From a virus (Duplodnaviria; Caudoviricetes), in the IMG/VR virus record IMGVR_UViG_3300025429_000009, positions 1 through 64,000 of that record: a stretch of 64,000 bases of DNA. One strand, 5' to 3'. Under the pieces are notes generated by a model, which did not search any database, was not told the origin of the DNA, and saw only the letters and a list, made by a program, of their open reading frames with translations. This document shows, piece by piece, positions 10,504-45,642 of this stretch (the stretch's first letter is position 1; the number at the start of each line of letters is the position of its first letter). The translations under genes and the position numbers were made by a program.

Positions 10504-10782
10504 ATGAGCGAAGAGATCAAGAACACAGTGAAGCCTGAAAAGGCCACTCAAACTGAGCCTCTTGGTGCCGTAATTGCAAGTGGTGTGACTCTTAGCGGTC
10601 AGACCATCTTCAGCCAGCCATGGTTTAACGTCTGGCTTCCCCAGACGTTTGCTGGTGCAGTTACAAACGCCAATGGTGGATCTGCAACAGTTACCATCAC
10701 CGGTAATGGATGGCAGGGTCAAAACAACACTGGTTACGTTTTCCAAAATGACCAGTACAACACAACCGTGAGAGGATTCTAA
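10504..10782 (+). CDS. Small virion protein
   Basis: AAGGAG SD; T/G/N-rich. Confidence 0.6.
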   Translation: MSEEIKNTVKPEKATQTEPLGAVIASGVTLSGQTIFSQPWFNVWLPQTFAGAVTNANGGSATVTITGNGWQGQNNTGYVFQNDQYNTTVRGF

Positions 10783-10783
10783 T

Positions 10784-11506
10784 ATGGCTACACCTAACGT
10801 CGCAACAGAACAGGGTAATAAGGCTGCACTCCGTGGGGTAACTCGCGGTGGCTTTGTTGCCTACTCAGAATACGCTGTTGACCCCACAATCATGGTCAAC
10901 GCTGCTGCTACAGCCAGTGGCCTCATCACACTCTCGGTTCCTACCGGTAACACCAGTTTTGTTATCAGTGGTAGCAATGGTCTGAACTCAACAGTTATTA
11001 CTGGTACTTCAACCGGTACTAGCGTTAACGGTCTTATCTCTGCTCTGCAGAACACGGCTCTTAGCGGTCAGACGTTCTACGTGAACGCTGGTGGTGCTAA
11101 CTACCTGAATGGTACAACGACTACCATCATTGTTCCTGGTGGTGCAGTATTGACAGTTGTTAGCGCAACTGGTACAGCCCCTACTATCGGTACAGTTACT
11201 CTTACGGGTACTAACGCTGAAGCTACAACCTACCCTAACTACGTTGGTGCTCCTAACTCTACTCCTAACTGGGTAGATGACGTTACTGTTCACTCTTACC
11301 AGGTTGGTTTCAACGGTTCTCTGGTTGTTAACAACAATGGTACGCTGAGCGGTTCAAACGTTATCCAGTCACAGGTTCGTCAGATCCTGACTGGTGAAGG
11401 TCCTGACGGTGGTAGCCAGACACAAACATACGCTGGTTACTTCGCTACATACTCGGGTAACTTGTTCGCAACTGGCCAGAAGAGAACTCAACGCCAGCAG
11501 TGCTAA
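10784..11506 (+). CDS. Virion structural protein, T/G/S-rich
   Basis: Beta-type composition, several SG motifs, GAGG SD. Confidence 0.65.
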   Translation: MATPNVATEQGNKAALRGVTRGGFVAYSEYAVDPTIMVNAAATASGLITLSVPTGNTSFVISGSNGLNSTVITGTSTGTSVNGLISALQNTALSGQTFYVNAGGANYLNGTTTTIIVPGGAVLTVVSATGTAPTIGTVTLTGTNAEATTYPNYVGAPNSTPNWVDDVTVHSYQVGFNGSLVVNNNGTLSGSNVIQSQVRQILTGEGPDGGSQTQTYAGYFATYSGNLFATGQKRTQRQQC

Positions 11507-11647
11507 ATGGATCACTTACCTTTTAATGTAAAGGTCGAAGCAGTAGTTATTAGAGCCAATGGTGACCGGGAAGAACTCGGCACCATTGGTTCTACTACTT
11601 TAAAGGACAATAGTGAACACAGTATTGACATCAACGACAAGAAGTAG
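11507..11647 (+). CDS. 46-aa protein absent from the ORF track (MDHLPFNVKVEAVVIRANGDREELGTIG...)
   Basis: ATG immediately after the upstream TAA; fills the gap; overlaps the next gene start. Confidence 0.6.
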   Translation: MDHLPFNVKVEAVVIRANGDREELGTIGSTTLKDNSEHSIDINDKK

Positions 11648-12218
11648 CCTCGTCAACGTCATCACGGGTTCTGGTTATTCCTTGAGTGAGCCAAAATACC
11701 TCTCTTGGGGAACTGGCGTAAGTCCTGCTTTACCTACCGATATTGCTCTTGGTAACCCTATTGGCAGTGTTATCTCTGGTACTGTTAGTACTCTTTCTAC
11801 CGTTACATCAGGTGATACGTACTTTTGTACGGGTACTTTCACTGCTAGTGGAATTGTTTCGGTTACCGAGGTAGGTCTTTTTACCAGTCAGTCTAGTTCA
11901 GCTGTAGGGTTAATTGCAAATCAAGTTGGACCCACGGATACCACCATCACAGTGAGCGGCTACAGCGGCTTTCCAGGTACCTTTCCGTTCAATGTACAGG
12001 TGCTTACCGAAGTAATGACAGTGACCTCTGGTAATGGTACGAATGTCTTCAATGTAATTCGTGGCGCAAACGGCTCTAGTAGAGTGACAAGTATTATTCC
12101 AACGCTTACCCCAGTTGTAGGACCAGCAGGGTATATGTTCTTGAAAAGCACATTTTCAAGTATTAACTTATACCCAGGGGATAATTTACAATTTAATATC
12201 AGCGTACAATTTTCTTAG
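11613..12218 (+). CDS. Virion protein resembling a fibre-anchor/collar domain
   Basis: PKYLSWGTG..PTDIALG and VTEVGLF motifs typical of tail-fibre N-terminal anchor modules; GTG start with AAGGA SD. Confidence 0.6.
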   Translation: MNTVLTSTTRSSLVNVITGSGYSLSEPKYLSWGTGVSPALPTDIALGNPIGSVISGTVSTLSTVTSGDTYFCTGTFTASGIVSVTEVGLFTSQSSSAVGLIANQVGPTDTTITVSGYSGFPGTFPFNVQVLTEVMTVTSGNGTNVFNVIRGANGSSRVTSIIPTLTPVVGPAGYMFLKSTFSSINLYPGDNLQFNISVQFS

Positions 12219-12225
12219 GATTTAA

Positions 12226-14667
12226 ATGGCTTACCCCACATATACAACTCCTAGATCAATCGCTGGCGCAGCTGCACCTTCTTACCTCTCTGCAACGCTT
12301 GCTAGTGGGTACTCTGCTGGTCAAACAATTACAGTTGCCAACACTGCTGGATGGTACGAAGTAAGCTCAAGCGGCACTGCTACTACAAACCCATTGGGAA
12401 CTAGCGGTGTTTTTACGTTGGTGGTCGATTACGGCCTCAGCACAGAAGAAAAGATCCTGTGCGCATCCGGTGCGATTTCTATCGGTGCTAATGCGGTAAT
12501 CCCAGTGTGGACAGACGGTACATACAACGGCCGTGGCTGGGATGGAACAAAATCAGTAGCACATGCTACGGGTATTGGCACCAATCCTAACGTATTCTTG
12601 GTTAGAACCGCGGTAGATGATCTCCAATTCAATACGTCAGCAACCACGCTAACCAACAACCTTGCCACATTATCTGGGCAATATGTGGTTACTTCCGGGG
12701 TCGTTACAGCTCAAGCTGGTTACATTGCTACGATATCAGGTAAGCAAGTTACTGATGAGACAAATATTGCTAGTTTGTCAGGCAGCTTGGCAACCCTCAG
12801 TGGTCAATATGTAATAACCAGTGGTATTGTAACCAGCCACACTGGGTCAATTGCAAGCATCAGCGGTAGCCTTAATACTTTGTCAGGACAATTTGTTGCA
12901 TTGTCAGGCGCCTATGCTGTAACCTCAGGGAACCTCAACACAACAAATAGCAACCTGTCAACATTAAGTGGTCAGTTCGTAACTCTTAGTGGAGCTTACG
13001 CAACTACTTCGGGTAACCTAAACACAACGAACACAAACGTTGCGAACCTTAGCGGACAATTTGCTTCACTGTCTGGGCAGTATCTGACTACATCAGGGAT
13101 AGTCACTGGGCACACAGGTTCAATTGCTTCAATCAGTGGCAGTTTAAATACTTTGTCTGGTCAGTACGTTGCTACAAGTGGCAGTTTAACCACGTTGAGC
13201 GGTCAATACGTTGTAACTTCGGGTAGCCTTACTACTCTTTCTGGACAGTTTGTTGTGCTAAGTGGTGCATACGCTGCCACTTCAGGTAGCCTAAACACCG
13301 TAAGCGGAGTCGCTTACTCTGCTCTGCAACGCTCAGGTGGTACTATCAGTGGTGCATTGAATATCACCAGCCCCATCCTTGGTGGTGTAACTGCTACTAG
13401 CGGACAATCTCTTGTATGGAACAGCACACAATGGGTGCCAGCAACGGTTAGTGGCGGTGGTGGAGGGATCACTTCTCTTACCGGTGACGTAACTGCAACC
13501 GGCACAGGTGCAGTCGCTGCAACTCTGGTTGGTACAACCGCTGTTAGTGGTGTGGTAAATGCCATTGTCAATAACAACTCAACAGTAACAGGAACAGTTG
13601 CAAACCTTGCCACATTGAGTGGACAATTCGTTACACTTTCAGGTCAGTTTGCGACCCTTAGCGGCGCCTATGCAACCACATCAGGCAACCTCAATACAAC
13701 AAATGCCAATGTAGCAAGCTTAAGCGGCCAATTTGCTTCATTGTCAGGTCAGTACCTAACAACTTCGGGAATAGTTACTACTGCAACTGGCAACATTGCT
13801 ACATTAACTAGCAACTTAGCTACCCTGAGCGGTCAATATGTTGCTACGTCTGGAAGTCTTACAACTCTTAGTGGTCAATTTGTAACATTAAGCGGTGCAT
13901 ATGCAGCGACTTCAGGTTCTTTGAACACACTTTCTGGACAGTATGTAGCCACTAGTGGTAGCCTTACAACTTTGTCAGGTCAGTTTGTAACGCTTAGTGG
14001 GCAATATAACACAACATCTGGTATTGTTACTGGTCACACGAGCTCTATCGCGCTAATTTCAGGCAACCTTAACACCGTTAGTGGTGTAGCTTATGCTGCC
14101 CTGCCAGGATCCGGTGGAACTATTAGCGGTAACCTTGTTATTGCTTCTGGTCTTACTGTATCTGGTACATCTACTCACATTGGTAACTCTACATTTAGTG
14201 GTACTCTTACAGTTGCTAGCGCAATCATTAACCCTATTTTGCAGGGTGCTTACGAAGTTGTATCCTATAGCGGATCAACTGTGCTCAGCGGCACAACAAC
14301 CCCAGCTACTCTAAATGCAGCAAACAGCTCATTCTACTTCTACAACACAGCCCCATCTGGCTCATTTACTGTAGCTATCACCGGAGCACCAACAGTATCT
14401 GGTAGGAGTGCTACATTCGCTTTGCTGGTTAACAACGGTGCTACAGCTTATCTACCCAACCAGATCACTATTAACGGTGTTGGGGCTGCTGCCACTGTTG
14501 CTCTACCAGCGCAGGGATCTACAACAAGTGGTATTACTACCTACTACCAGGGTGGTACCTTGTGGTCAGCAGCGGATGCAAGCACTCTTGATTCATACAC
14601 GTTTACTGTGATCTGCACGTCATCTACCCCAACATGGACATTGTTAACAGGATTGACAAAGTTCTAA
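12226..14667 (+). CDS. Long fibre protein with SG-containing heptad repeats
   Basis: 813 aa; two blocks of 7-aa repeats (TLSGQYV/ATSGSLT/TLSGAYA); globular N and C domains. Confidence 0.8.
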   Translation: MAYPTYTTPRSIAGAAAPSYLSATLASGYSAGQTITVANTAGWYEVSSSGTATTNPLGTSGVFTLVVDYGLSTEEKILCASGAISIGANAVIPVWTDGTYNGRGWDGTKSVAHATGIGTNPNVFLVRTAVDDLQFNTSATTLTNNLATLSGQYVVTSGVVTAQAGYIATISGKQVTDETNIASLSGSLATLSGQYVITSGIVTSHTGSIASISGSLNTLSGQFVALSGAYAVTSGNLNTTNSNLSTLSGQFVTLSGAYATTSGNLNTTNTNVANLSGQFASLSGQYLTTSGIVTGHTGSIASISGSLNTLSGQYVATSGSLTTLSGQYVVTSGSLTTLSGQFVVLSGAYAATSGSLNTVSGVAYSALQRSGGTISGALNITSPILGGVTATSGQSLVWNSTQWVPATVSGGGGGITSLTGDVTATGTGAVAATLVGTTAVSGVVNAIVNNNSTVTGTVANLATLSGQFVTLSGQFATLSGAYATTSGNLNTTNANVASLSGQFASLSGQYLTTSGIVTTATGNIATLTSNLATLSGQYVATSGSLTTLSGQFVTLSGAYAATSGSLNTLSGQYVATSGSLTTLSGQFVTLSGQYNTTSGIVTGHTSSIALISGNLNTVSGVAYAALPGSGGTISGNLVIASGLTVSGTSTHIGNSTFSGTLTVASAIINPILQGAYEVVSYSGSTVLSGTTTPATLNAANSSFYFYNTAPSGSFTVAITGAPTVSGRSATFALLVNNGATAYLPNQITINGVGAAATVALPAQGSTTSGITTYYQGGTLWSAADASTLDSYTFTVICTSSTPTWTLLTGLTKF
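12661..14085 (+). repeat. Two blocks of degenerate 21-bp (heptad) coding repeats, about 12661-13311 and 13603-14085
   Basis: Amino-acid repeats are near-identical but synonymous codons differ between copies. Confidence 0.8.
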
Positions 14668-15686
14668 TGCCACTCGTAACTACATTCGCAGACGATGCTA
14701 TCCAAGCACTCAATGTGTTTTCTTCGCAAACTGTAGTAGCTGTTACAGGATCACACATTTATTTTAACGCTTCAAATACTTATACTTTTACCGTTCCATC
14801 AGGTGTAACTCAAATTTCAGTTCTTGCCATAGGTGGTGGTGGCGGTGCTGCTGGTGGCGTAAACTCTGGTGCTAATGGTACTGCTTCAACCGTAAAGAAC
14901 AGTGGTGGAACGGTTCTTATTAGTGCCGGTGGTGGTTCTAGAGGAGCAAGCGGTGTCGCTGGTGCTGGCGGAACTGCTTCATTTGGAACTGGTGTCACGG
15001 GAACAGGATATTCAGGTGGTTCTGGTGGATTCCGTGGTGGTGGTGGTGCAGGTGGATACACGGGTAATGGTGGAAACGCTGGTGCTACATCGGCTTCGGC
15101 TGGTTCGGCAGGTACAGGTGGTGCTGCCGGTGGTGGTGGATCACCATCGTCAAACGGTGGTGGCGGTGGTGGAACGGGTATTTACGGATCTGGTTCCAAT
15201 GGTGCAGGTGGTAACGCAACGGTAGGTTCACCCTCAGAAGGCGGTCAACCGGGTTCCAATGTCACTTACACGGCTGGCACAGGTGGAAATGGTGGTAACG
15301 GTACTACTTCTAACGCTGCTGGTGGAGACATAGGAACTTACACATATACCGGGCTTGTTGCCGGTGGTAGTACAAACACCCTAACTACTTATTCTGGTGG
15401 TGGTGGAGCAGCAGGATCAGGAGCAGCAGGTGGTGGTGGTGGATGGCCTGGCGGTGGTGGAGCAGGGCAGAACTCCACAGGTGGTGGTGGTGGGGCTTTA
15501 GCCTACGCCAATCTTAGTGTTTCACCGGGTCAGACCTATACGATAAATGTGGGAGCCGGTGGTGCTGCATTCGGTGTTGGTGGCGGTGGAGCATCTGGCG
15601 TTGTCCGCATTGTTTGGAATACAACATCAACGCCATCATTCCCATCAACTAATGTTGCTTCAACCGCAAATGAAGTGTATAACTAA
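14667..15686 (+). CDS. Glycine-rich fibre-tip/adhesin-like protein
   Basis: TFTVPSGVTQISVLAIGGGGG...VSPGQTYTINVGAGG...GASGVVRIVW pattern of phage Gly-rich domains; TAATG coupling gives a start at 14667. Confidence 0.75.
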   Translation: MPLVTTFADDAIQALNVFSSQTVVAVTGSHIYFNASNTYTFTVPSGVTQISVLAIGGGGGAAGGVNSGANGTASTVKNSGGTVLISAGGGSRGASGVAGAGGTASFGTGVTGTGYSGGSGGFRGGGGAGGYTGNGGNAGATSASAGSAGTGGAAGGGGSPSSNGGGGGGTGIYGSGSNGAGGNATVGSPSEGGQPGSNVTYTAGTGGNGGNGTTSNAAGGDIGTYTYTGLVAGGSTNTLTTYSGGGGAAGSGAAGGGGGWPGGGGAGQNSTGGGGGALAYANLSVSPGQTYTINVGAGGAAFGVGGGGASGVVRIVWNTTSTPSFPSTNVASTANEVYN

Positions 15687-15949
15687 TGTTAGGCAACCGA
15701 GGATATTACAGCGCAAACGCCAAGGTGTATGAAGGCTACCGCGGCATACGCGCTTTGCAATCATATGCATTAAACATCTTGTTGATTGAGTCTGGCAAAG
15801 TGCAGCCTTCTATCAACGTTAATAATTACACATTGGATAACAATCAAAATCTTGATAACGTCGGTAACTTTACTGAAAATAATGATCAAAACGAGATAGA
15901 TTACGCTGAGCCCAACAACCCCCTGGGCGAAGATGTAGTACCCTCTTAA
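15686..15949 (+). CDS. Hypothetical Asn-rich protein
   Basis: TAATG coupling. Confidence 0.55.
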   Translation: MLGNRGYYSANAKVYEGYRGIRALQSYALNILLIESGKVQPSINVNNYTLDNNQNLDNVGNFTENNDQNEIDYAEPNNPLGEDVVPS

Positions 15950-15982
15950 TTTTGCTGTAGATAATAGACCAAAGGAGATAGT

Positions 15983-16534: not shown

Positions 16535-16545
16535 GAATAAATTAA

Positions 16546-20679: not shown

Positions 20680-22257
20680 ATGCCTATTCCTAATTATCAG
20701 ATCCCTGGCGTTTACGTCACGCAGTCCGGCACTGCATTGACTGCCGTAAACCCTACGAATCTCAACATCGCTATTGTCGCTGACCAGGTGACACCTGGAT
20801 ACAACACTGATACGTTTAGCAACGTCGTTTCTGTCAGTGGTTCAATTATTGGTCAGCTTACTGTGCCAATGGTTAACATCACTAGCACCGGTGCATATTC
20901 AACGTACTCCGGTTTCAGCCTTACTTGGACTAACTCTACTGGCGTTACAACCACTGGTACATATGGTACTAACTATCAAATCGTAACCCCAAGTGGTAGT
21001 GCGTTCAGTTACCTTACAACTAGTGGTGCGACTTCGCCTAACGTTTACCCAAGCGGAACAGTTCAGATTACATACGGTCACAACTGGGGCGCTTACAATA
21101 CATACTATGAATTTAACCCACTTGCTAGTACAATTGGTGCAGCAATTAGTGGTACTACAATTATAAATCCAGCTACCCTTGCTGCACAACTTGCATTCCA
21201 AAACGGTGCTAACTCAGTAACTATTGTGCCGGTTGCTCGAGTTTCTTCTAGCGGTCTTGGATCTTCAGCAACAGTTTCTGACTGGGTCAGAACATTCCAG
21301 CTTACACCTAGCGGTAACAATGGTAGCGATCCAACATTCTTGTCAAGCCAAAGCAATGTTGACGTGATTGTTCCTCTGTATGGTTTTATATCAGTCACCG
21401 GTACAACAGCTGGTCAACTTCTTAGCTACAACAACAGTGCAGTCGCAACAGGTATTACTAACTACTTGACGGTTCAGTCAGGTCTTGGTAACTACCAGCG
21501 CGCATTCCTTGGTGTTGACAACACAAACAATCAGGTAACTGTTACTGGTATGCAAGTACTTGCTAGCGGTTTTGGTGCTTCAACTGCTGGCACAAGAGTT
21601 AGCATTGTATACCCAGGCTCAATTAATTACAACCCAGGTTTGAGCTTGTCAACTGGATTGAGCAATGCTAACTTTAATGTTGCTGGTTACTACGTTGCAG
21701 CAGCACTCGCTGGTTTGTTCGTCGGTCAAACCGATGTATATGTGCCAATCACCAATAAAACTGTTAACGGTTTTAATTACATTCCTAACCAGATTAGCAC
21801 TAACGATGCACAGTACAGCTACTTGGCATATGGTATTACAACGGTTTACCAAAACAGAAATGGTTTGATGACTGTTTTGCAAGGTTTGACAACAAACATT
21901 CAAAATTGGATTACACAAGAGATTTCGATTAATGCTGTTGGTGACCGACTTGCTAACAACATTAAGAATGCTCTTGTTGCAACACAGCTCATTGGTGGTC
22001 CTTTGACTCAAAACACCGCTGCTGCTGCACTGGGTACGGTTCAGGCTGTGTTGACAAATTCTGTATCCAATGGTCTTATCCAGAGCTACCAGAACTTGTC
22101 ATACATAATCTACCCAAACTCACCAACCACAATTAACATCACGTTCCAATACTCTCCGACTTACCCATTGAACTACATCCAAACTGTTCTGAGCCTCAAC
22201 ACTCAGACTGGTGCTGTAGTCACGGTTAATGCTCAGAGCAACCCCGTAGTTTACTAG
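20680..22257 (+). CDS. Contractile tail sheath protein
   Basis: YQIPGVYV N-terminus, AQLAFQNGA, YYVAAALAG, ITNKTVNGF, QGLTT, EISI, YSPTYPLNYI. Confidence 0.9.
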   Translation: MPIPNYQIPGVYVTQSGTALTAVNPTNLNIAIVADQVTPGYNTDTFSNVVSVSGSIIGQLTVPMVNITSTGAYSTYSGFSLTWTNSTGVTTTGTYGTNYQIVTPSGSAFSYLTTSGATSPNVYPSGTVQITYGHNWGAYNTYYEFNPLASTIGAAISGTTIINPATLAAQLAFQNGANSVTIVPVARVSSSGLGSSATVSDWVRTFQLTPSGNNGSDPTFLSSQSNVDVIVPLYGFISVTGTTAGQLLSYNNSAVATGITNYLTVQSGLGNYQRAFLGVDNTNNQVTVTGMQVLASGFGASTAGTRVSIVYPGSINYNPGLSLSTGLSNANFNVAGYYVAAALAGLFVGQTDVYVPITNKTVNGFNYIPNQISTNDAQYSYLAYGITTVYQNRNGLMTVLQGLTTNIQNWITQEISINAVGDRLANNIKNALVATQLIGGPLTQNTAAAALGTVQAVLTNSVSNGLIQSYQNLSYIIYPNSPTTINITFQYSPTYPLNYIQTVLSLNTQTGAVVTVNAQSNPVVY

Positions 22258-32000: not shown

Positions 32001-32087
32001 TTTACAGGTGGTTTCACCACACAAGCAACTTTGACTGCGCCAATGGCCAATGGAAATATTATGCACTACGGATTGGATCTGGCATAA
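29061..32087 (+). CDS. Baseplate hub with an inserted NlpC/P60 peptidoglycan peptidase
   Basis: Hub-like N-terminus (STFTATLNNP, MDRITVFLKR) and C-terminus (FMPELYPGMRI, FYVTAVTH); FDCSGL..GDLVFW..HVSI..IEA NlpC/P60 core. Confidence 0.8.
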   Translation: MGLNDYLGQSGTFIYSPDISVAVSTIDNGIIDISNDIINFTLDREINQVSTFTATLNNPGRKYVLQNQNGNRLISTMDRITVFLKRTNWVQCFTGYITYAPLLTLQPVPVTITANCTLRILQVTYWDDTLIAYQQLLLNATDQAAVGSAATVTDGGVGQAVVNVLYKVCGWNPNAIHIQSLPPNFISFAAETYIQQLSSGDLDQNAIAELSQILSVKGISSGNSVQTGGYAYGSTETLNNSKAPTGTSVTASKAVPFITSPIAGGKQNHPGPNTLNPVNQKLIEEDIYYCSAPWSYLQYQITPSLTPSGRQSYQKIQDQAKSWLADNWSTGNNDGRLLVVYNQKTDNAVAVRATSIPQVPNTSANGYAVYDDKADYFQLHPSVVAYLNGTVSEPSKWNRTDDPGASYVSFSWADMNKINTAGVIPSPSTTVLSGIAGVANPNIGDSSDPLVITGVLQTLVSNLLGQVGDKYTENTAPKLGYTRDNPGKPGTGTGSFDCSGLAWWGYSTIGIHLGGTKHAGTTWSECGPVDGSQADKYGAWTPNTQQPALGDLVFWEVTGDSGSAPQHVSILITNFGDPGPQGTHFAGTRGDPDVAYLIEASHGGSSSADQNPSYGDPVYYNSNNLGPNVQQIRWSSIANGKWLPWGMRVIGYRSPITLHPSWTSAQLQQLSITSSSLDNIQAVGTSTGTNPSTTAPGQSNPNNPSNPTGTASSSTLNPTVGTASGTQQQRVSSTFAGAYSNLMQPPQFDVRASMLAGTPRAFLLDKPVMNDISQIMGAGLRSYQSAPNGDFVAWFPDYYGVYGTDPVMEISPVEILDFQIYHDDNQLTTHVGVVGDTNGIGSQVSSADYLNTNGIVSIQDGTTAQMLFGKQSPNSKAKGKAKKNDKNGAMNNLSALSFLGKYGMRPLVQEQQMIHSTTLEYMYALYTFMNQWGNQFASNVTFTFMPELYPGMRISITMPNGTNVPDQYNFYVTAVTHTGDFTGGFTTQATLTAPMANGNIMHYGLDLA

Positions 32088-32884
32088 TGAGCGTTTCAGG
32101 AAAGCAATACGATCCTAACAGTGGCGTTCGTCGAGTTATATTGACGACATACCCGGAGCTTCACCCGTTTAGCAAGGTACAGGGCGCACCACAGAATTAC
32201 TACTGTAAAGCAGTAGATATGAAAGGTTTTCAGATCGAGGTTGACCTCCAGGCATACCCAGCTGGTGTAACTCTTGATCAGATTGAACCAAACCAGGTGT
32301 GGTGGGTAGAAAAGCGCACATCTTTGTACCGTTTGTACCTATACGCTGGCACGTACAACCCACAAACGCGTCAGATCGATAGCACAGGTTTGTTGCCTAA
32401 TGATACAACTGCTAAGTATTACGCTAATTACTACAGCACTGTAACCCAAACAGCCCCTTTAGCTAATACACCATATGCGACTACCTATAACGCAACATCA
32501 GATGCTAATGGTTTCAGTGTAGACTCTACGGGTAGTAAAATTACAGCACAGTATGCAGGTACATACCAATTTGTTTTTACAGCACAAGTAATCAACTACA
32601 ACTCTTCTGGTTCTGCTACAAATAATCTTTCTTTCTGGTCTAGAATGAATGGTATTGATGTACCCTGGAGTGCCGGTGAGTACACAGTTTTTTCTAAAGG
32701 TGGTGGAGTTACTCCAGGCCTTGTAGTAGGTTGGAATTTTATTACAGAAATGAATGCTGGAGATTACGTTCAATTAATGTGGGGTGTAGATAACTCCAGT
32801 AACTATCTACAACTTGTAGCTCAACCAAGCCCTCCATATGGTCCAGCAATACCATCTGTAACAATTACAGCACAGCAAATATAA
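32087..32884 (+). CDS. Baseplate spike-like protein with a C1q-like C-terminal domain
   Basis: After the hub; KITAQYAGTYQFVFTAQ and MNAGDYVQLMW motifs. Confidence 0.55.
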   Translation: MSVSGKQYDPNSGVRRVILTTYPELHPFSKVQGAPQNYYCKAVDMKGFQIEVDLQAYPAGVTLDQIEPNQVWWVEKRTSLYRLYLYAGTYNPQTRQIDSTGLLPNDTTAKYYANYYSTVTQTAPLANTPYATTYNATSDANGFSVDSTGSKITAQYAGTYQFVFTAQVINYNSSGSATNNLSFWSRMNGIDVPWSAGEYTVFSKGGGVTPGLVVGWNFITEMNAGDYVQLMWGVDNSSNYLQLVAQPSPPYGPAIPSVTITAQQI

Positions 32885-32916: not shown

Positions 32917-33366
32917 ATGAAGACTATTACAGTTAGCAACGGTGACATACAACTAAGCAATGGTAAGATCCAGTTTTCATATGGTTCAGACAAGCTAGTT
33001 CAAGACATACAAAGATGGTTGACTGAGCCATTGGGTACTGGATTCACAACACCTGGTTTTGGTAGCCTTTTGCCCGGCATGATTGGCCAAGGGCAAAGTA
33101 GCTCAACAATAACTAATGTTACTAGCGAAATTAATAGAGTATTGCAGCTTTACCAGGGCCAACAGATTCAAAGCCTACAGCAGTCGCAGAATACCGGTCA
33201 GCTTGCTTACTGGAACAAAAGCGAAATCATTCAAAACATCGCTTCAGTAAACGTTAGTATACAAAACACAACAGTCTATGCTAATATAAGTTTATTGACT
33301 TTAGCAAATAGCACAGTTAATCTTTCTGTGCTTATTAACAAAAATGGAGTTAACGTAAATGGCTGA
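32917..33366 (+). CDS. Baseplate wedge protein (gp25/W-like)
   Basis: NGDI, KLVQDI..WLTEPLG, PGFGSLL. Confidence 0.75.
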   Translation: MKTITVSNGDIQLSNGKIQFSYGSDKLVQDIQRWLTEPLGTGFTTPGFGSLLPGMIGQGQSSSTITNVTSEINRVLQLYQGQQIQSLQQSQNTGQLAYWNKSEIIQNIASVNVSIQNTTVYANISLLTLANSTVNLSVLINKNGVNVNG

Positions 33367-35806
33367 TACAACAGGAGTGCTAGCTAGGCTTCAGGCCGCC
33401 CTTTCTGTCTACGACCCAACCTGGGACGTTAGCGTAGGAAGCGCAACGTACAAGATCCTTGAATCAGTTGCACAAGAAATCGCTATTGCTAATAATAACT
33501 CTGTCCTGCAGTCATACAGCTATGACATTACAACCAAGGCTGGTTCTGATCTTGACTCGTTTACCAGCCTGTTCGGTGTGTACAGACAGCTTGGTAAAAG
33601 AGCAACTGGTATTGTAACTTTTAACATTGGTGCAGCAACCAACTCAGTTATTGACATCCCAATTGGTACGCAGGTTGCTGTCCCAATTGGCAATGGTTAC
33701 ACATCAGCCATCTATTTTTCTACGATTACACCCGCTATCATTGGTATTGGTGATACTTCTGTAGACGTTCCAGTTTCTTGTACGATCGCTGGCATCGTTG
33801 GTAATGTTCCAGCTGGTGCAATCACCACACTTGTAAGCAGCCTTATGAGCGTTACTTCGGTGACCAATTCTAACCAAACTTCTGGTGGGCTTGAGCCAGA
33901 GAGCGATACAGCACTAAGAGCAAGATGGCAAAATACAGCATTTAGCAACACAACTGGTACATACGGCAAGTACAACCTTACAGCACAGCAGAACCCCAAC
34001 GTAAATCTTGTTAACACAGTTGGAACTCAGATGTATTACAGCGAGCAGTTGCAAGTTTTAGCTTCTGTCAGTGGCACTGGTCCAGCAACCTTCTGTTACG
34101 TTGCTTACAGCGGTATGACAGTGAACACTAGCTCAGGAACTGTTACGTACTCAGGTGCGCCAACCGTTGTTGCTTACAGTGGTTTCTCTTCAGGTGCAAG
34201 CAGCACTGCCGTTGCCTCTGGCCTCCAAGCCCTGCTCAGCGGTATAGCACCGTCATACTACATTACTATATCTTCAACAAATCCATCGAACACTATTACG
34301 AACGGCTTCAGCCTTTCTTACAGCAATACTAGCCCGTACCGTTTGATCCTTGGTAGTGGTAATACGATTCCTGGTAACAGCGTTACAACTAGCGGTGTTA
34401 CTACCATCAGCGGTACGTCATTCACCACGTATGTCCAAAGTGCTAACCCAGACATCGGTGTGTCGGGAACGATGTCTTACAATGGTGCATTCAATGGGGC
34501 ACTGTACCCTGAAGGCAATGAGCTCGTTGGTGTAAACCTTAACTCATTTAATCAAGCTACGTTTGCTCTTACAACTGATTATGTTTACCCAAACAACCCA
34601 ACGCCTCAGTTGACTATTAACTTGCCAAACGGCAGCAATAATTCAGCAATGTTTGTTGGTAGCAACATCCAAGTTATTTCTGAGTACATTCCTGCTTGCA
34701 GCAGATCTACTTCAGTTGCTAGCGGTAATTATGTTGATATTTTTATCAATGGTACAACATCTTCATCGGCATACGAACAAGCAGTGTTCAACCCATCTTT
34801 TACACTGTCGTCAGGCAACAGCAACCCCATGCTGAATACGGTGAACTATACAGTTGCTAGCGGTAACGTTGCTGCAACTATCACCGGTACAACAGGTGAT
34901 TACTATGTGCCATTGGATGTGCAACCAGTGATTAACTTCCCATCACAGTTGAACTTGTCTACCAGTGGTGTAGCGGATACATTCTTCTTGTTCAACAACA
35001 CAACTGGTAGCGGTTACACATACCCAATTGCTTTGAACAAGTATCCATATGTTGTTTTTTCTGGGACAGCAGCTAGTGGAACAAACTTTATTTCTGTAAA
35101 CAACGCCAGTGGCTTTCTTTACCCAGGTTTGGCTTTGGCCAGCGGTATTGCGACATCAGGAACGCAGTACTTTATTAGCAGTGTAAGTAGCAGCGGTGTG
35201 TATCTGAACCAAACTGTTTCAAACAATGGTGCCCCCACAACTACTACTTTCAGCGGTAAAGCAATAGCGTATCCAATCTATGACACCACGGATAATAAGA
35301 ATAGTACCCTACAAACCACAGCAATTGCTATTGACTCGACTACGCCACCAAACGGTTGGCCATCTTTGCCAACGAATGCATCTGTTGTTACATACAACCA
35401 TGGGTACAATAGCGACGTCGTATCTGTTGGAACACTAATTCAACAGAGTAGACCTTTTGGTACTAATACTCTTGTGCATCAAGCTAGTTTCATACCGCTA
35501 ATAATCAATGCAAATATTGTGTTTAGTAGCAACTACACACCAAGCATTGTTCAAACAAATATTAGCAACCAATTGAGCAACTACTTTGGTAATTTTAACT
35601 ATCTGGGCACAATTTCTTTCAATGCAATCGCCAACCAGATTCTTTCTGCCCCAGGCGTTGCTAACGTAAAAATCACTAGCATCAACACAACATCTGTTGA
35701 TGGTACTATCGTTAACACATTCGCTAAGGATTTTATCCTTGCAAGCAATCAGCTGCCATCACTTTACAACGTTGTATACACAGTCAAGGGAGCTAGTACT
35801 TTCTAA
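33359..35806 (+). CDS. Baseplate J-like protein with large central insertions
   Basis: GSDLDSF, RATGIVTF, IPIGTQV, GNVPAGAI, GGLEPESDTALRAR; C-terminal ILSAPGVANV. Confidence 0.85.
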   Translation: MADTTGVLARLQAALSVYDPTWDVSVGSATYKILESVAQEIAIANNNSVLQSYSYDITTKAGSDLDSFTSLFGVYRQLGKRATGIVTFNIGAATNSVIDIPIGTQVAVPIGNGYTSAIYFSTITPAIIGIGDTSVDVPVSCTIAGIVGNVPAGAITTLVSSLMSVTSVTNSNQTSGGLEPESDTALRARWQNTAFSNTTGTYGKYNLTAQQNPNVNLVNTVGTQMYYSEQLQVLASVSGTGPATFCYVAYSGMTVNTSSGTVTYSGAPTVVAYSGFSSGASSTAVASGLQALLSGIAPSYYITISSTNPSNTITNGFSLSYSNTSPYRLILGSGNTIPGNSVTTSGVTTISGTSFTTYVQSANPDIGVSGTMSYNGAFNGALYPEGNELVGVNLNSFNQATFALTTDYVYPNNPTPQLTINLPNGSNNSAMFVGSNIQVISEYIPACSRSTSVASGNYVDIFINGTTSSSAYEQAVFNPSFTLSSGNSNPMLNTVNYTVASGNVAATITGTTGDYYVPLDVQPVINFPSQLNLSTSGVADTFFLFNNTTGSGYTYPIALNKYPYVVFSGTAASGTNFISVNNASGFLYPGLALASGIATSGTQYFISSVSSSGVYLNQTVSNNGAPTTTTFSGKAIAYPIYDTTDNKNSTLQTTAIAIDSTTPPNGWPSLPTNASVVTYNHGYNSDVVSVGTLIQQSRPFGTNTLVHQASFIPLIINANIVFSSNYTPSIVQTNISNQLSNYFGNFNYLGTISFNAIANQILSAPGVANVKITSINTTSVDGTIVNTFAKDFILASNQLPSLYNVVYTVKGASTF

Positions 35807-39927: not shown

Positions 39928-39933
39928 GTATGT

Positions 39934-41787: not shown

Positions 41788-41843
41788 AGGAGGTATCTAT
41801 GGACCCAACCAAAGCGCATTTATAACCTTAGGATTGGAGAATC

Positions 41844-42170
41844 ATGATAAAGAAAGCGATAACATCGTTAGTAGTATTTGCAAGTTTGTTTTTAACTGCC
41901 CACACAGCCTCAGCTACCACTAAGATTGTTCTTAGTGCAGCTACAATTGCCGAATGGCAGCGAGTAGCTATTTGCGAAGAGGGTGGGAATTGGAAGCATT
42001 TTAGTTATTGGTACCCAAATGCTCTGGGGATTGATAGACCAAACTGGATTCAGTTCGGGGGTAGCGTTACGAAAGTTAGCAGCAAGATTACACAAATTCT
42101 TGTAGCTGAACGGTTCATAAAGCACTATGCTATGAGCGTACCGGATCAATACGGTTGCCACGCATGGTAG
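41844..42170 (+). CDS. rpf: Secreted resuscitation-promoting-factor-like lytic transglycosylase
   Basis: Signal peptide (MIKK-hydrophobic-ASA); WQRVAICEEGGNW with catalytic Glu, NW..FGG, QILVAER. Confidence 0.75.
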   Translation: MIKKAITSLVVFASLFLTAHTASATTKIVLSAATIAEWQRVAICEEGGNWKHFSYWYPNALGIDRPNWIQFGGSVTKVSSKITQILVAERFIKHYAMSVPDQYGCHAW

Positions 42171-42183
42171 AAAGAAGATAAAA

Positions 42184-42399
42184 ATGGCTATTAATAAGTA
42201 CGACCAGATCCACAGAGATATTATGGACCTGCTCCTAGGCGGAGAGATCCACAGTACACTGGTCGGCAAGCAAGTTACACTCGGCGGCTCTGAGGAAAGC
42301 ACTACAAAGCAATCTGAAGAATTTGCAGAATACATTGTAAACCTGCTAAAAAAAGCAGAACAGTTTCGAAAGGACAATGTAAAAAAGAGCAGAAAGTAG
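42184..42399 (+). CDS. Hypothetical protein
   Basis: ORF with GAAAG SD. Confidence 0.55.
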   Translation: MAINKYDQIHRDIMDLLLGGEIHSTLVGKQVTLGGSEESTTKQSEEFAEYIVNLLKKAEQFRKDNVKKSRK

Positions 42400-42405
42400 C
42401 TTTAG

Positions 42406-42509
42406 ACAGTGAAGAGGGCTGAACTCTATCGCCCCTTCCTGTAGGGCCTGGTCTTCCTCGGGGGTCGTAGTCGGCGTCAATGCCTTGACTCCCCCCGAGG
42501 CCCTACCAG
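42406..42509 (+). ncRNA. Candidate structured RNA (two hairpins) upstream of whiB
   Basis: GAAG-A-GGGC/GCCC-CTTC hairpin, then GTAGGG..CCTCGGGGG..AGTC-GGCG-TCAA-TGCC..GACT..CCCCCGAGG-CCCTAC. Confidence 0.45.
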
Positions 42510-42528
42510 ATCTGCTAACATAAATATT

Positions 42529-42927
42529 ATGGGAAGATCCTTAAATCTACAATGGCAAGATGAAGCTGCATGCAAAAGCATGTCCATCGAAAACTACGAT
42601 GACTTTTATCCAGATAGGGGTAGGTCAGCAGAGAAGCAGCTCAATGGCATATGCAGCTCATGCCCAGTAAAAGATGATTGCTTAAACCACGCATTGAGCT
42701 ATGAAAAATATGGCTATTGGGGTGGCACCAACGCTAAGCAACGTGATAAGATGCGCAAACAACTAGGCATAGAGTTGCTTGATATTGATTACGAATTCAT
42801 CATGAAATACGCTGAAGAAAAAGCTAGAATTGAAGAAGCTATTCAGGCTAACAAAATGAAGCGTGGCCCTAAGGGTCCTAGAAAGAAGAAGGAAGTATGC
42901 GAATCGGACTTGTTGTCCCAGTTTTAA
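42529..42927 (+). CDS. whiB: WhiB-family Fe-S transcription factor with a basic C-terminal tail
   Basis: WQDEAAC..ICSSCPVKDDC..GYWGG; KRGPKGPRKKK tail. Confidence 0.92.
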   Translation: MGRSLNLQWQDEAACKSMSIENYDDFYPDRGRSAEKQLNGICSSCPVKDDCLNHALSYEKYGYWGGTNAKQRDKMRKQLGIELLDIDYEFIMKYAEEKARIEEAIQANKMKRGPKGPRKKKEVCESDLLSQF

Positions 42928-43586
42928 ATAACTTTGATCAAGCTATCGACTTGATCTACTCAGCCAAGAGCAAGAATGATCTTAAGATCTACATCCGCCC
43001 TCAGTATCGCTACCAGGTTCCATTGGCAGCAGCTTGGAACAAGGGCATACGTGAAGCTATTGCGGATGGATGTGATGTAATCATTGTAAGCAATGATGAT
43101 GCTATCTTTGCGCCTAACACCATTGATCGGTTGGCTGCAGAAACAATGGTTATGCAAGACAAGTTTGTTATGGCATTCCCAGTTGATGTTATGGATGAAT
43201 TAGATGATCCATCAGACATCCTATTCGTAGAAGAAGAAAATTTTTCTGGAAGCAGCAACAAAGAGGACCAGAGCTTCTCTTGCTTTGCTATTCGGTCAAA
43301 CTTCTTTGAATTGTGCGGTACGTTCGATGAGAACTTTGACCCTGCATGGTGGGAAGATGCTGACATGAAGTATCGCATCAAGCTACTAGGCTACACGACT
43401 CTTCAGACAAATGTGCCTTATGTACATCTCCGCCACCAGTCAACAAAGAAATTAACTTTGCCTTTGAACTCTATCAAAGCTGGAGAATATTACGTAAGAA
43501 AATGGGGAAGTGCTAAGAAAGACTTGCACGAACTATATAGAACCCCATATAATGATATTGAATTAAGTCCTAAAGACTGGAGATAG
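42897..43586 (+). CDS. Glycosyltransferase family 2 (GT-A)
   Basis: VVPVLN, AAAWNKG, SNDD, GTFDENF..WWEDAD. Confidence 0.85.
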   Translation: MRIGLVVPVLNNFDQAIDLIYSAKSKNDLKIYIRPQYRYQVPLAAAWNKGIREAIADGCDVIIVSNDDAIFAPNTIDRLAAETMVMQDKFVMAFPVDVMDELDDPSDILFVEEENFSGSSNKEDQSFSCFAIRSNFFELCGTFDENFDPAWWEDADMKYRIKLLGYTTLQTNVPYVHLRHQSTKKLTLPLNSIKAGEYYVRKWGSAKKDLHELYRTPYNDIELSPKDWR

Positions 43587-43588
43587 TT

Positions 43589-44857
43589 GTGAGCAAAATT
43601 AGAGTACTGGCATGGGGTGACTACGCATGTGGCACCGGTTTCGGAACGGTGATGAAGAACATCATGTCCGAGATTAATAACACTGGTAGCTATGACATCG
43701 ATGTTGTTGGTGTTAACTATGATGGTGGTCCTTATGACACTGAAAAGTGGCCAGGTAGACTGTGGCCAGCTATTAGTGCATTGCGCACACAAGGACCATA
43801 CGGGGACGTATTCGGTCGACAGGTGTTCTTGGACCTGCTTGCACAGGGTGACTATGACATCGTCTTTATTGTGCAAGACACGTTCATTGTTTTGCCTATT
43901 GTTCCTCAGATTCTTGAGCTGCAACGCAACAAGCCAAACACGTTCTCTACAATTTACTACTACCCATTTGACTGCACACCACGTGAAGAGTGGGTAACAC
44001 AGTGTGTAGCAGCGTTCGACTATCCGGTTGCATACACTGAGTACGCAAAAAACGAAAGCCGTAGATTCATTGGCAACCTTGCTGACAAGCAACATGTAAT
44101 CTACCACGGTACAAACACCAGCGACTTCTACCCAATCAGCAAGGCTGACCAGAAGATTGCTAAGGCAAACATTTTCCCTGCAGTTCAAGATAAGTTTGTT
44201 ATCCTTAACGTGAACCGCAACCAGGGACGTAAGGATATCTCGCGCAGCCTTATGGTTATGCGTCGTTTGCTTGACATGGGTGTGGAAGATGCGTTCCTCT
44301 ACATGCACATGCAGGAGACAGACTTTGGTGGTAGCGTTATCCAGATGGCTAGAACGATTGGCCTTGACCCTGCTAAGCACTATGCTGTGCCAGACCCACG
44401 TCAGTTTGGTGCACACAGTGGTTTCCCAATCGAGTTCCTTAACCAGATCTACAATGCAGCAGACGTTTACCTGACCACAACGCATGGTGAGGGTTGGGGT
44501 CTGAGCATTACCGAAGCAATGGCTACCAAGCTGCCTGTCGTTGCTCCCAACAACACATCAGTGCCTGAGATCCTGGGTGATGACCGTGGTTGGAGAATTA
44601 ACAGTGGACACACGCCTAGTCATTGGATCATCAAGGAAAATGACAACGAGCGTATGCGTCCGTTGATGGATGTTGAAGAGGCTGCTAACACTATCAAGTA
44701 CATCATGGACAACCCTGACGAAGCTGCTCGTCGTGCTGGCAATGCTTACGATTGGATTCAGAAGAATACTTGGGAAGAAATCTGCAAGCAGTGGATCAAT
44801 GTCTTCAACAAGGCAACCAACAAGGCTCGTACGGCTCGCAAGTTTAAGGCACTGTAA
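43589..44857 (+). CDS. Glycosyltransferase family 4 (GT-B)
   Basis: TGFG, HG, NRNQGRKD, YNAADV, GEGWGLSITEAMA. Confidence 0.9.
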   Translation: MSKIRVLAWGDYACGTGFGTVMKNIMSEINNTGSYDIDVVGVNYDGGPYDTEKWPGRLWPAISALRTQGPYGDVFGRQVFLDLLAQGDYDIVFIVQDTFIVLPIVPQILELQRNKPNTFSTIYYYPFDCTPREEWVTQCVAAFDYPVAYTEYAKNESRRFIGNLADKQHVIYHGTNTSDFYPISKADQKIAKANIFPAVQDKFVILNVNRNQGRKDISRSLMVMRRLLDMGVEDAFLYMHMQETDFGGSVIQMARTIGLDPAKHYAVPDPRQFGAHSGFPIEFLNQIYNAADVYLTTTHGEGWGLSITEAMATKLPVVAPNNTSVPEILGDDRGWRINSGHTPSHWIIKENDNERMRPLMDVEEAANTIKYIMDNPDEAARRAGNAYDWIQKNTWEEICKQWINVFNKATNKARTARKFKAL

Positions 44858-45642
44858 TGCCAAAGATAATTAGCATTACTCCGTTCTGGAACGAGGTGCA
44901 CATTCTTGATCTTAGGATTGGCATCCTGGAAGGTGTTGTTGACCACTTCTACACGATAGAAGCTGACAAGACATTTACCTTCCATGATAAGCCGATGCTT
45001 GCCAGAACAGTTGTACACCCCAAGCACACAGTGGTAGAGATCAAGATGCCAGAAGATGTTAGTTTCTGGGGCCGTGACTCAAATTGGGGTCGTGACTACT
45101 ACCAACGTGACTACAAGGTTGACTTGTCATCATATGATGATGATGACATCGTATTGATTACTGACCTTGATGAGGTGCCACGACCAGAGTCTCTCGAGTT
45201 CCTGCGAGACAACTTTGATCCAGAATTTTCTTATGCATTCCTTATGCTCACTCATCAGTACTACCTGAACAACCAGAACATTGGTGAAGGTTACATTGAC
45301 AGAGCTAGAGCATACAGCGTTAAGCAGTATATGGATCCTGAGTTCCACCCATCGTATTCACGTTTTCACACTATTGCTGATATAATTATTCCAGAATCAG
45401 GATGGCACTGGACATACATTGGTGACCCGGAGTGTATTAAGGAAAAAATTGAAGCGTTTGCCCACAGTGAGTTCGACAACGATGAGACGAAGAGTCAGCT
45501 CCAAGAACGTATGGATAATAATCTTGACACGCTTGGTCGATCGTTTGAATTAAGAGTTGCCGAACTTGACACGGATTTCTACCCAAAGTATCTTAGAGAG
45601 AACAAAGATAAGTACGCTAAGTACATTAAGGAGTTACCATGA
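44857..45642 (+). CDS. Glycosyltransferase family 17-like (MGAT3/GnT-III-like)
   Basis: FWNE..LDLR..L..VVDHF..IEA..TF, R..YQR, ITDLDEVP, GWHWTY, KIEAFAH. Confidence 0.8.
   Translation: MPKIISITPFWNEVHILDLRIGILEGVVDHFYTIEADKTFTFHDKPMLARTVVHPKHTVVEIKMPEDVSFWGRDSNWGRDYYQRDYKVDLSSYDDDDIVLITDLDEVPRPESLEFLRDNFDPEFSYAFLMLTHQYYLNNQNIGEGYIDRARAYSVKQYMDPEFHPSYSRFHTIADIIIPESGWHWTYIGDPECIKEKIEAFAHSEFDNDETKSQLQERMDNNLDTLGRSFELRVAELDTDFYPKYLRENKDKYAKYIKELP

Follow-up and report, generated by a model that had tools for sequence, protein, structure and literature searches.

The 64,000-nucleotide stretch analysed here (the window) covers the initial 64 kb of a 92,998-bp phage contig (IMG/VR record IMGVR_UViG_3300025429_000009), with genes almost all on the plus strand. 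The exterior proteins of the encoded tail carry the dipeptide Ser-Gly (SG) at two to four times the number expected from their composition, and an operon downstream of them encodes three predicted glycosyltransferases (GTs). An earlier, sequence-only reading of this DNA had taken SG for a portable O-glycosylation acceptor motif (sequon) used by these enzymes. We find that the SG excess is genuine and that it coincides with turns in a model of one baseplate protein and with a fixed register in the fibre repeat. The explanation of SG as a structural turn or corner motif has, in our estimate, an even chance of being right, and we infer that selection acted on structure rather than on an acceptor site. 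The link between SG and the glycosyltransferases is circumstantial.

SG excess in the exterior tail proteins

Expected SG numbers were obtained from composition-preserving shuffles, with shuffling inside blocks of 40 amino acids (aa) as a second control. The two- to four-fold excess in the exterior tail, baseplate and fibre proteins (Table 1) is unchanged by the block shuffles, which control for regional composition. Among the 400 possible dipeptides, SG is the top substantive outlier in the fibre, the baseplate J-type wedge protein (baseplate J), the 1046-aa minor tail/baseplate protein and the sheath, and again in the remaining tail proteins when these are pooled (76 SG versus 50 expected, z 4.2). 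The reversed dipeptide GS, as well as TG, NG and DG, occurs at expectation in the tail proteins of the window. Across the exterior set, SG outnumbers GS by 171 to 67 (p 1e-11). As the sequence-only reading had expected, SG also exceeds GS and the shuffled expectation outside the repetitive fibre (108 versus 52, p 1e-5).

The SG counts given in that reading reproduce exactly, including the low controls: the tube has no SG (0 SG, 4 GS and 2.1 expected in the pooled relatives), the tape measure protein (TMP) has 4 versus 7.3 expected, DnaE has 4 versus 5.0 expected and the major capsid protein (MCP) has 2. No SG bias was found in the head proteins (24 versus 17), the non-structural proteins (27 versus 22) or the 64-93 kb part of the genome. 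The claim that SG is also abundant in the small proteins starting at 10504, 10784, 11613, 17464 and 22756 needs qualification, as the excess is marginal in the window alone (p 0.001-0.1) and becomes clear once non-identical orthologues from eight relatives are pooled.

Within individual proteins, SG is concentrated in peripheral or inserted parts, which is what the earlier reading had proposed. In baseplate J, residues 1-225, 226-645 and 646-815 hold 1, 24 and 0 SG, respectively (6.2 expected in the middle segment, an insert). All SG of the sheath lie inside residues 16-296, so that residues 1-310 hold 11 (3.9 expected) and residues 311-525 none. In the 1046-aa protein, residues 591-1046 hold 20 SG (5.1 expected), with 15 sites within residues 614-801, and residues 1-590 hold five (3.9 expected). 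The SG sites of the 287-aa protein fall in its N-terminal 140 aa. No homology could be detected between the SG-rich regions of these at least ten tail proteins. The serines of SG are encoded by all six Ser codons, which places the bias at the protein level and rules out a DNA-level motif as its source.

The residue preceding Ser, previously listed as V/L/I/T/A/Y, is A, V, L, T or I, and the residue following Gly is T, S or Q. Thr at position -2 is enriched 3-fold, in fibre and non-fibre proteins alike, and the flanks (T/A/V/L/Q/S) contain almost no acidic residues. With Thr at -2, a small or hydrophobic side chain at -1 and T/S/Q behind Gly, the context follows the out-in-out-turn pattern known from surface strands.

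SG at modelled turns of baseplate J and in the fibre shaft

The insert of baseplate J (residues 226-645, ~420 aa, nucleotides 34034-35293) is specific to the clade of this phage, which is represented by ~40 related IMG/VR contigs of up to 133 kb, and has no match outside it. The core alone matches solved wedge proteins, which are 350-390 aa long (PF04865, 99 bits; Foldseek E 3e-9 to the wedge proteins of phi812, phiCD508, A-1(L) and Mu over ~200 columns). In an AlphaFold2 (AF2) model built from a 14-sequence alignment (mean predicted local distance difference test score, pLDDT, of 60; 65-83 in the insert sub-domains), 11 of the 20 confidently placed SG are at the C-terminal ends of beta-strands (background 28%; Fisher p 0.008), and eight of the nine short hairpin (inter-strand) gaps of the insert hold or adjoin an SG. 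Such placement is enough to explain a preference for Ser followed by Gly.

In the fibre, SG recurs in a strict S-G-x-φ-x-x-φ heptad (φ, hydrophobic residue) with spacings that are multiples of 7, arranged in two heptad blocks (residues ~141-400 and 460-640) that are followed by a tip domain. Orthologues of 813-2058 aa keep the heptad and vary in repeat number. Four stretches of the fibre repeat match the Pfam family PF21300 (LbR_Ice_bind beta-roll; 81.3 bits with a cut-off of 30, E 5.7e-23), and the repeat weakly matches the P22-type tail needle gp26/phrog_1219. The phmmer match to the solved ice-binding protein 3ULT is insignificant (E 0.15-0.24). RNA polymerase II C-terminal domain heptads, which dominate the phmmer search of the PDB, were rejected as a low-complexity artefact. 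A tblastn search of the fibre against cultured phages gave no match, to which the low-complexity filter of BLAST may contribute.

The heptad itself is widespread. A phmmer search with the fibre repeat retrieved 447 cluster representatives, many of them unrelated, normally charged proteins with the same heptad, in variants such as QRIDISG, AELSGDY, GNLDSVS, RAVSGQV (in the alga Closterium) and TSGRINH (in spirochaetes). PF21300 is likewise flagged on SG-heptad proteins from outside the clade. In further heptad families TG, EG or QG takes the place of SG, so that Gly is the constant. Given this spread, the 51 repeat SGs of the fibre are best read as part of a shaft repeat, and S-G-x-φ-x-x-φ looks like a widespread, uncharacterised repeat class. 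Near-perfect S-G heptad arrays are found in cellular proteins, namely P0137 (Closterium, a green alga) and P0164/P0277 (Pillotina; a Treponema STAS-domain protein), and a Q-G variant, TTLQGNV, in the Paraburkholderia protein P0183.

Conservation and turnover of SG within the clade

Among ~40 distinct relatives (33-63% identity), the SG excess is retained in the orthologues of both baseplate J (z 3.5-9) and the 1046-aa protein (z 2-7), and five of the 11 sheath sites are invariant SG across the clade. Where SG is lost, Ser disappears and Gly is kept more often than the reverse (50 versus 15 cases in baseplate J, 40 versus 26 in the 1046-aa protein). Thr does not replace the Ser of SG more often than it replaces serines elsewhere (0.33 versus 0.33 and 0.22 versus 0.25), whereas replacement by Asn or Gly is more common there and replacement by Ala less so (p 7e-5 in the 1046-aa protein). 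This substitution spectrum leans towards a structural role, being closer to that of a turn residue than to that of a hydroxyl acceptor.

The bias is also a property of particular modules. The 265-aa baseplate protein of the window (32087-32884) contains a conserved, charged adapter of ~100 aa that in relatives (orthologues at L010:7006-8841, L008:6050-8302, L021:5260-8748 and L004:8225-9523) is joined to mosaic, swapped receptor-binding fibre modules: an SG-rich fibre module, the tip domain of the window fibre, collagen-like GXY repeats, or a tail-collar plus His-x-His module. The adapter-fibre protein of L010 contains the SGGTISGNLxVASGLTVSG module of the window fibre (29 SG, 8 GS), and that of L021 has collagen-like repeats. 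The L008 protein, in a genome with GT2, GT4 and GT17 all present, has an exposed, uncharged, S/T/N-rich middle of 500 aa without SG excess and ends in the tip domain of the window fibre.

We propose that the exposed, beta-rich and uncharged modules of this tail would favour SG as a turn or corner of two residues, and that the clade may have grafted these modules onto a myovirus tail that is otherwise cluster C-like: the heptad shaft of the fibre, the hairpin-rich baseplate J insert, the C-terminal half of the 1046-aa protein, the outer sheath and several small neck and tail proteins. Gly would provide the turn conformation, and Ser would serve as a small, uncharged, polar strand-ender on surfaces nearly stripped of Asp, Glu, Lys and Arg. 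The modules are mosaic and move between fibre genes. This proposal is supported by the turn placement in baseplate J, the fixed register in the fibre, the wide distribution of the heptad, the persistence of Gly beyond that of Ser and the module specificity of the bias, as well as by a GT4-bearing sister lineage without SG bias and by the dispensability of GT2 and GT17 for the bias (see below).

Relatives without glycosyltransferases and the case against a purely structural rule

We take the phage for an uncultured one of actinobacteria. The cluster C myoviruses of mycobacteria (Myrna, Phabba and Bxz1/Catera types) have major capsid proteins with 64% identity to its own, and its genes from the sheath through the large minor tail protein to the helicase are arranged as in Rhodococcus phage Finch, Mycobacterium phages Phabba and Catera, and Gordonia phage SCentae. 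The host is probably a freshwater bacterium, a habitat suggested by the low G+C content of the phage (~46%), its WhiB gene and a study of phages that infect Nanopelagicales, a freshwater order (PMC10202952); an Rpf-like transglycosylase is encoded as well. No integrase was recognised in scans of the open reading frames (ORFs) of the contig, and the phage looks lytic.

Finch, Phabba, Catera and SCentae served as cultured relatives without the GT genes, as neither inspection of the locus nor tblastn revealed a homologue of the three window GTs in them. In their sheath, hub, wedge and minor tail proteins, SG equals GS and expectation (SG/GS totals 46/46, 41/53, 45/51 and 54/51), so the lack of bias foreseen by the sequence-only reading for such phages is indeed seen. 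The comparison is confounded, since most of the SG-rich sequence has been added within the clade (in the 1046-aa protein, the match to minor tail proteins of these relatives is limited to residues 55-400, and residues 591-1046 are clade-specific) and G+C content and probably habitat differ between the two groups. Because GT4 and SG-rich exteriors occur together in every clade member, their association amounts to a single evolutionary event.

Several observations weigh against SG being no more than a turn motif. The beta-rich tail proteins of the same four relatives favour no X-Gly pair, which also rules out a plain swap of DG or NG for SG. At the sheath SG positions these relatives have PA, TD, GG, GD, SN, DT, VG or gaps (in an alignment at 20-30% identity), so that heterogeneous loops have converged on one dipeptide. 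Ser is conserved at 0.63 and 0.57 within SG versus 0.36 and 0.40 for other serines, and about half of the SG columns are lineage-specific with SG density maintained. Conservation of the SG serine together with turnover of sites at constant density looks, at the level of these alignments, like selection on the motif itself. A purely structural rule leaves unaccounted for a Ser-specific SG shared by at least ten unrelated proteins in which TG, NG and DG are not enriched. Furthermore, the turn placement comes from one medium-confidence model (pLDDT 60); the AF2 monomer model of the fibre is unusable (pLDDT 28.5).

The glycosyltransferase cassette

An Rpf-like transglycosylase gene (41844-42170) and whiB lie directly upstream of the GT genes. 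The tight coupling of three GT genes noted earlier stands, as do the GT4 and GT17-like assignments; the GT2-like protein falls below the Pfam cut-off (PF00535, 21.1 bits with a cut-off of 23.3; one DAD at residue 154) and is backed by its PHROG match. The GT4 protein is, as judged by its domain (PF00534, 44.8 bits with a cut-off of 26.4; PF13692, 37.9 bits), its catalytic E-x7-E motif (EGWGLSITE, residues 301-309) and its match to phrog_2170, a bona fide GT-B/GT4 enzyme; it also matches the GT4-conflict family (33 bits), and its best PDB match, chlorovirus B736L (3OY2), is weak (E 2e-6, 30 bits). The GT17-like protein covers profile positions 81-274 of 348 of PF04724, has no solved relative by sequence and finds homologues among cultured phages in cyanophage genes only (24% identity). 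No transmembrane (TM) segments are predicted in any of the three proteins, which are accordingly predicted to be soluble.

GT4 is 60-83% identical in every relative that reaches the locus and is always preceded by whiB; searches with the protein and then with an alignment as query found no clade member without it. By contrast, GT2 and GT17 are absent from at least eight lineages in which SG is undiminished, so that the motif does not track the fixed initiating-plus-elongating trio put forward in the earlier reading. In most of these lineages other genes follow GT4; they encode a GT25-like protein and a GT10 fucosyltransferase in L037 (11284-15885), a sugar C-methyltransferase and an epimerase in L058 (11286-16691), nucleoside diphosphate (NDP)-sugar epimerases in L036, L059 and L061, and two P4H-type 2-oxoglutarate (2OG) oxygenases with a sulfotransferase-like gene in L057 (9176-13831); in a few relatives GT4 stands alone. 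Across L030-L063 this hypervariable cassette, which includes NDP-sugar epimerases/dehydratases, spans 0-6 kb downstream of the GT4 orthologues, and in L057 an N6/N4 DNA methylase gene lies just upstream of it. A conserved first enzyme followed by a hypervariable tail suggests an exposed, diversifying glycan.

The sister group of this GT4 (50-53% identity) occurs in small siphovirus-like genomes (L078-L085, 35-38 kb) and in Tetrasphaera phage TJE1 (L027:5388-10731). There, GT4 ends a cluster of six to eight sugar genes, with a gene for a GroEL-like chaperonin directly upstream and with GT2s, methyltransferases, an epimerase, a DegT aminotransferase and an acetyltransferase, followed by DNA methylase, ParB-N, Mom and terminase genes. 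No SG bias is seen in the structural proteins of the small siphovirus-like genomes (distal tail proteins, 13 SG, 12 GS and 8.5 expected; 10 SG and 16 GS in a low-charge, S/T/N-rich protein of 688 aa). The distal tail proteins of TJE1 show a modest one (21 SG, 7 GS, ~9 expected).

The whiB-GT2-GT4-GT17 operon may be a feature separate from the SG bias, with a universal soluble GT4 and a hypervariable elongating or sugar-tailoring set behind it, and its candidate acceptors would be a virion protein, a host envelope polymer or, less likely, DNA. Modification of a virion protein at any site has slightly less than an even chance; the host envelope is a possible but clearly less probable target, some other acceptor is unlikely and DNA is improbable. 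A scan for promoters and terminators over 39.5-47.3 kb gave results at or below shuffled expectation.

Alternative explanations

The strongest alternative, which we regard as possible but doubtful, is that T-φ-S-G serves, where it sits at exposed turns, as a portable sequon for O-glycosylation that is specific to Ser. The soluble GT4 would add the first sugar in the cytoplasm during tail assembly, and lineage-specific neighbours (GT2 and GT17 here; a GT25-like enzyme, GT10 fucosyltransferase, sugar C-methyltransferase, epimerases or oxygenases in relatives) would elongate or tailor it, yielding a dense, lineage-specific and hypervariable glycan coat on the sheath, baseplate and fibres of freshwater actinophages. 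Three tests of the sequon proposed by the sequence-only reading came out in the predicted direction: SG exceeds GS and the shuffled expectation outside the fibre as well, it keeps to peripheral or inserted parts and to turns, and the GT-less relatives show no excess. Also in favour of the sequon, at least ten unrelated tail proteins have the SG excess in their exterior parts only, while tube, TMP, head and replication proteins do not have it; orthologues in the four GT-less relatives lack it, with SG replacing heterogeneous loop dipeptides in the sheath; and SG serines are selectively conserved as sites turn over at constant density.

The enzyme side is consistent with this sequon, too. GT4 is present in every clade member and, at 60-83% identity, is better conserved than its putative substrates (33-63%). 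It heads a hypervariable tailoring cassette, as would be expected for exposed glycans; the three GTs lack TM segments, and no DNA-hypermodification gene was recognised in the 93-kb contig. The bias in TJE1, which has a GT4 homologue, points the same way. Two of six contexts of unrelated SG-heptad proteins from outside the clade include sugar genes, one adjoining a 1009-aa GT4-type/methyltransferase fusion and the other, located directly after gp23 in a T4-like phage, an NDP-sugar epimerase, which is suggestive in a sample that has no base rate for comparison. Precedents are the glycosylation of mycobacteriophage virions (PMC11256854, PMC10877033) and the action of TibC on TibA (PMC4358343).

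What weakens the sequon is, first, that GT4 and SG became associated in one event at the level of the clade, in which habitat, GC content and domain insertions are confounding factors. The GT4-bearing sister lineage has no bias, nor has the exposed module of the GT-complete relative L008. The heptad occurs in an alga and in spirochaetes as well, and four of the six SG-heptad contexts outside the clade have no GT in view. Finally, SG serines show no preference for replacement by Thr, and Gly is more persistent than Ser.

It is unlikely that the cassette instead modifies the host envelope, for example a wall glycopolymer or a glycolipid precursor in the manner of TarM, TarP or PimA, so as to mask receptors against superinfection or to reduce sticking to debris, SG being unrelated. 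Most actinobacterial and firmicute GT4 enzymes act on envelope precursors, and the window GT4 has weak NCBIfam similarities to MshA, BshA, glycolipid and exopolysaccharide (EPS) enzymes, with 'cell wall biosynthesis' in the source annotations. The operon sits with the host-directed whiB and Rpf-like transglycosylase genes, outside the virion module, and hypervariable cassettes are typical of surface-antigen loci, too. However, genes for a membrane-anchored GT, a flippase or a polyprenyl-phosphate transferase are lacking and all three GTs are predicted to be soluble, the phage looks lytic, with no integrase recognised, and the sister lineage makes its own tailored NDP-sugars beside chaperonin and packaging genes.

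Glycosylation of phage DNA against restriction, as in T-even phages and again with SG unrelated, is very improbable. It was proposed as the role of the GTs of the first isolated Nanopelagicales phages (PMC10202952), the conflict-systems family matched by GT4 would be in keeping with it, and both the sister lineage and L057 have genes for DNA methylases, ParB-N and Mom next to the cassette. Yet no hydroxymethylase for dCMP or dUMP, TET/JBP-type gene or other base-hypermodification gene was recognised in the contig, in which many ORFs have no assigned function and which may be incomplete, and the fucosyltransferase, sugar C-methyltransferase, aminotransferase, acetyltransferase and sulfotransferase-like partners fit a complex glycan rather than known DNA sugars.

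The tail of this phage is exceptionally poor in charge. The residues D+E+K+R make up 3.6% of the sheath, 1.0% of the fibre repeat (12646-14145), 4.0% of the baseplate J insert and ~10% of the pooled baseplate, compared to 22% in the head proteins and 27% in the replication proteins of the same phage (range of its non-tail proteins, 22-28%) and to 19-21% in the tail homologues from Finch, Phabba, Catera and SCentae. In the charge-poor tail proteins S+T+N reach 30-39%, and the SG-free core of the sheath is uncharged, too. A passive origin of the SG excess, either from this charge purge (1-10% in the tail) or from the spread of one ancestral SG repeat module, for which the demonstrable exchange of modules between fibre genes would speak, is if anything slightly harder to credit than a DNA target, given that both kinds of shuffle already control for composition with GS not enriched, that other equally uncharged S/T/N-rich proteins have no bias, and that the SG-rich regions have no detectable homology and their serines are selectively conserved.

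Features of the window and neighbouring genes

The features discussed above are collected in Table 1.

Table 1. SG-rich tail proteins and genes of the glycosyltransferase operon. Coordinates are those of the window; pooled figures for relatives are SG/GS/expected.
Feature	Position	Strand	Evidence
Neck/tail protein, 92 aa	10504..10782	+	SG 2, GS 1; relatives pooled 33/6/6.5
Tail-region protein, 240 aa	10784..11506	+	SG 5, GS 4; relatives pooled 58/12/17.4
Tail-region protein, 201 aa	11613..12218	+	SG 7, GS 3, z 2.2; relatives pooled 48/18/20.6
Tail fibre, 813 aa	12226..14667	+	SG 63, GS 15, 15.1 expected, z 14
Structural protein (phrog_2791), 287 aa	17464..18327	+	SG 5, GS 3, 1.1 expected, z 4.1; relatives pooled 21/14/6.6
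Tail protein, 223 aa	19943..20614	+	SG 4 versus 1.4 expected; relatives pooled 31/11/9.5
Tail sheath	20680..22257	+	SG 11, GS 5, 4.9 expected, z 3.2
Protein after tube, 335 aa	22756..23763	+	SG 9 versus 4.7 expected, z 2.2 (weak); relatives pooled 11/3/5.7
Baseplate J-type wedge protein	33359..35806	+	SG 25, GS 6, 9.3 expected, z 5.9; Pfam Baseplate_J
Minor tail/baseplate protein, 1046 aa	36762..39902	+	SG 25, GS 14, 9.0 expected, z 6.0
WhiB-like gene heading GT operon	42529..42927	+	Pfam Whib E 6e-15; overlaps GT2 start by 31 nt
Predicted GT-A (GT2-like), 229 aa, variable among relatives	42897..43586	+	Pfam GT2 21.1 bits; PHROG galactosyl transferase E 5e-12
Predicted GT4-family (GT-B), 422 aa, conserved cassette core	43589..44857	+	Glycos_transf_1 E 1.3e-11; phrog_2170 E 5e-50
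Predicted GT17-like, 261 aa, variable among relatives	44857..45642	+	Pfam Glyco_transf_17 52.1 bits (cut-off 26)

Two further proteins near the neck and fibre genes differ in their SG content. The 189-aa protein encoded after the capsid gene (9892-10461) has the opposite bias, its pooled orthologues containing 5 SG and 19 GS with 10.7 expected. The 350-aa protein at 14634-15686, whose gene shares 34 nt with the 3' end of the fibre gene, is 30% Gly with GGGG, GAGG and GTGG runs, resembles the glycine-rich minor tail proteins of actinophages and is symmetric in SG and GS (10/11). The major capsid protein (8731-9750) is 97-99% identical in relatives (L086-L097) whose tail proteins are only 45-75% identical; on the sequences compared, this gap indicates either strong mosaicism or very different evolutionary rates of head and tail.

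Implications

If SG is a structural motif, S-G-x-φ-x-x-φ stands as a widespread, uncharacterised shaft repeat of phage fibres that is found in cellular proteins, too. If it is a sequon, a single conserved enzyme could coat a fast-evolving receptor-binding machinery by way of a motif spread over a dozen tail proteins of the exterior, and the coat could be changed by swapping the downstream enzymes, with effects on host recognition, evasion of defence, grazing and the persistence of virions in lakes; the pair of tag and enzyme would also be a compact tool for glyco-engineering. Claims of SG-type sequons recur, which may reflect either a general biology or a general artefact of beta-rich exteriors, and glycosylation should be read from such motifs only after comparison with a structural null model. 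The near-complete stripping of charge from the tail surface of the clade, down to 3.6% D+E+K+R in the sheath, is an adaptation worth structural study under the structural explanation as well.

Comparison with known systems

Acceptor sites of animal proteoglycan xylosyltransferases share with the window the Ser-Gly dipeptide, with Ser as the acceptor there and as the putative one here. In proteoglycans, the dipeptide has to be flanked by acidic residues and is modified in the secretory pathway by an enzyme of family GT14. By contrast, the SG flanks of the window are non-acidic (1-4% charged residues in the SG-rich regions) and Pfam assigns the GT genes to GT2, GT4 and GT17 only, so the proteoglycan analogy drawn in the earlier reading fails on the context that defines such sites.

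SdgA and SdgB are GT4 enzymes that glycosylate Ser-Asp dipeptide repeats. SdgB thus resembles the putative system in being a GT4 enzyme able to read a two-residue, Ser-containing repeat. The similarity of the window GT4 to SdgB and to chlorovirus B736L is generic at the level of the GT-B fold, with 15.7 bits to the SdgB model (cut-off 800) and 30 bits to B736L, an enzyme with a still putative acceptor of its own.

To our knowledge, a few mycobacteriophages are the only phages whose particles are established to be glycosylated, and there only the capsid and the tail tube are concerned. In Che8 and Rita, O-glycosylation of the virion is reported to target capsid and tail-tube subunits (PMC11256854, PMC10877033). 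The likeness lies in an actinobacteriophage with its own soluble GTs, in related cassettes with methyltransferases and sugar-tailoring enzymes, and in the proposed glycan shield. The targets differ, given that the tube of the window phage has no SG and its MCP two, and no SG-type sequon is reported for those phages. Among 50,697 phage records searched by tblastn with GT4 and GT17, there was no mycobacteriophage match, and only TJE1, cyanophages and Flavobacterium phages were retrieved.

Bacterial autotransporter heptosyltransferases (BAHT), namely TibC and AAH acting on TibA and AIDA-I, act in the cytoplasm and modify many serines of a repetitive beta-solenoid; on the beta-helix of TibA, TibC attaches heptose to Ser but not to Thr, with one mapped site in QNSGG (PMC4358343). 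TibC/TibA is the best mechanistic counterpart of a Ser-specific sequon at solenoid turns. Unlike the phage enzymes, which belong to GT4, GT2 and GT17 and would serve a dozen substrates, the BAHT are bacterial, dodecameric iron-finger heptosyltransferases with one dedicated substrate, and neither the three GTs nor the other scanned ORFs match the heptosyltransferase family. For the fibre repeat itself, the likeness is to structural proteins: the ice-binding beta-roll of Lolium (PF21300) and gp26/phrog_1219 share with it a 7-residue period, hydrophobic positions 3 and 4 residues apart and a fixed Gly.

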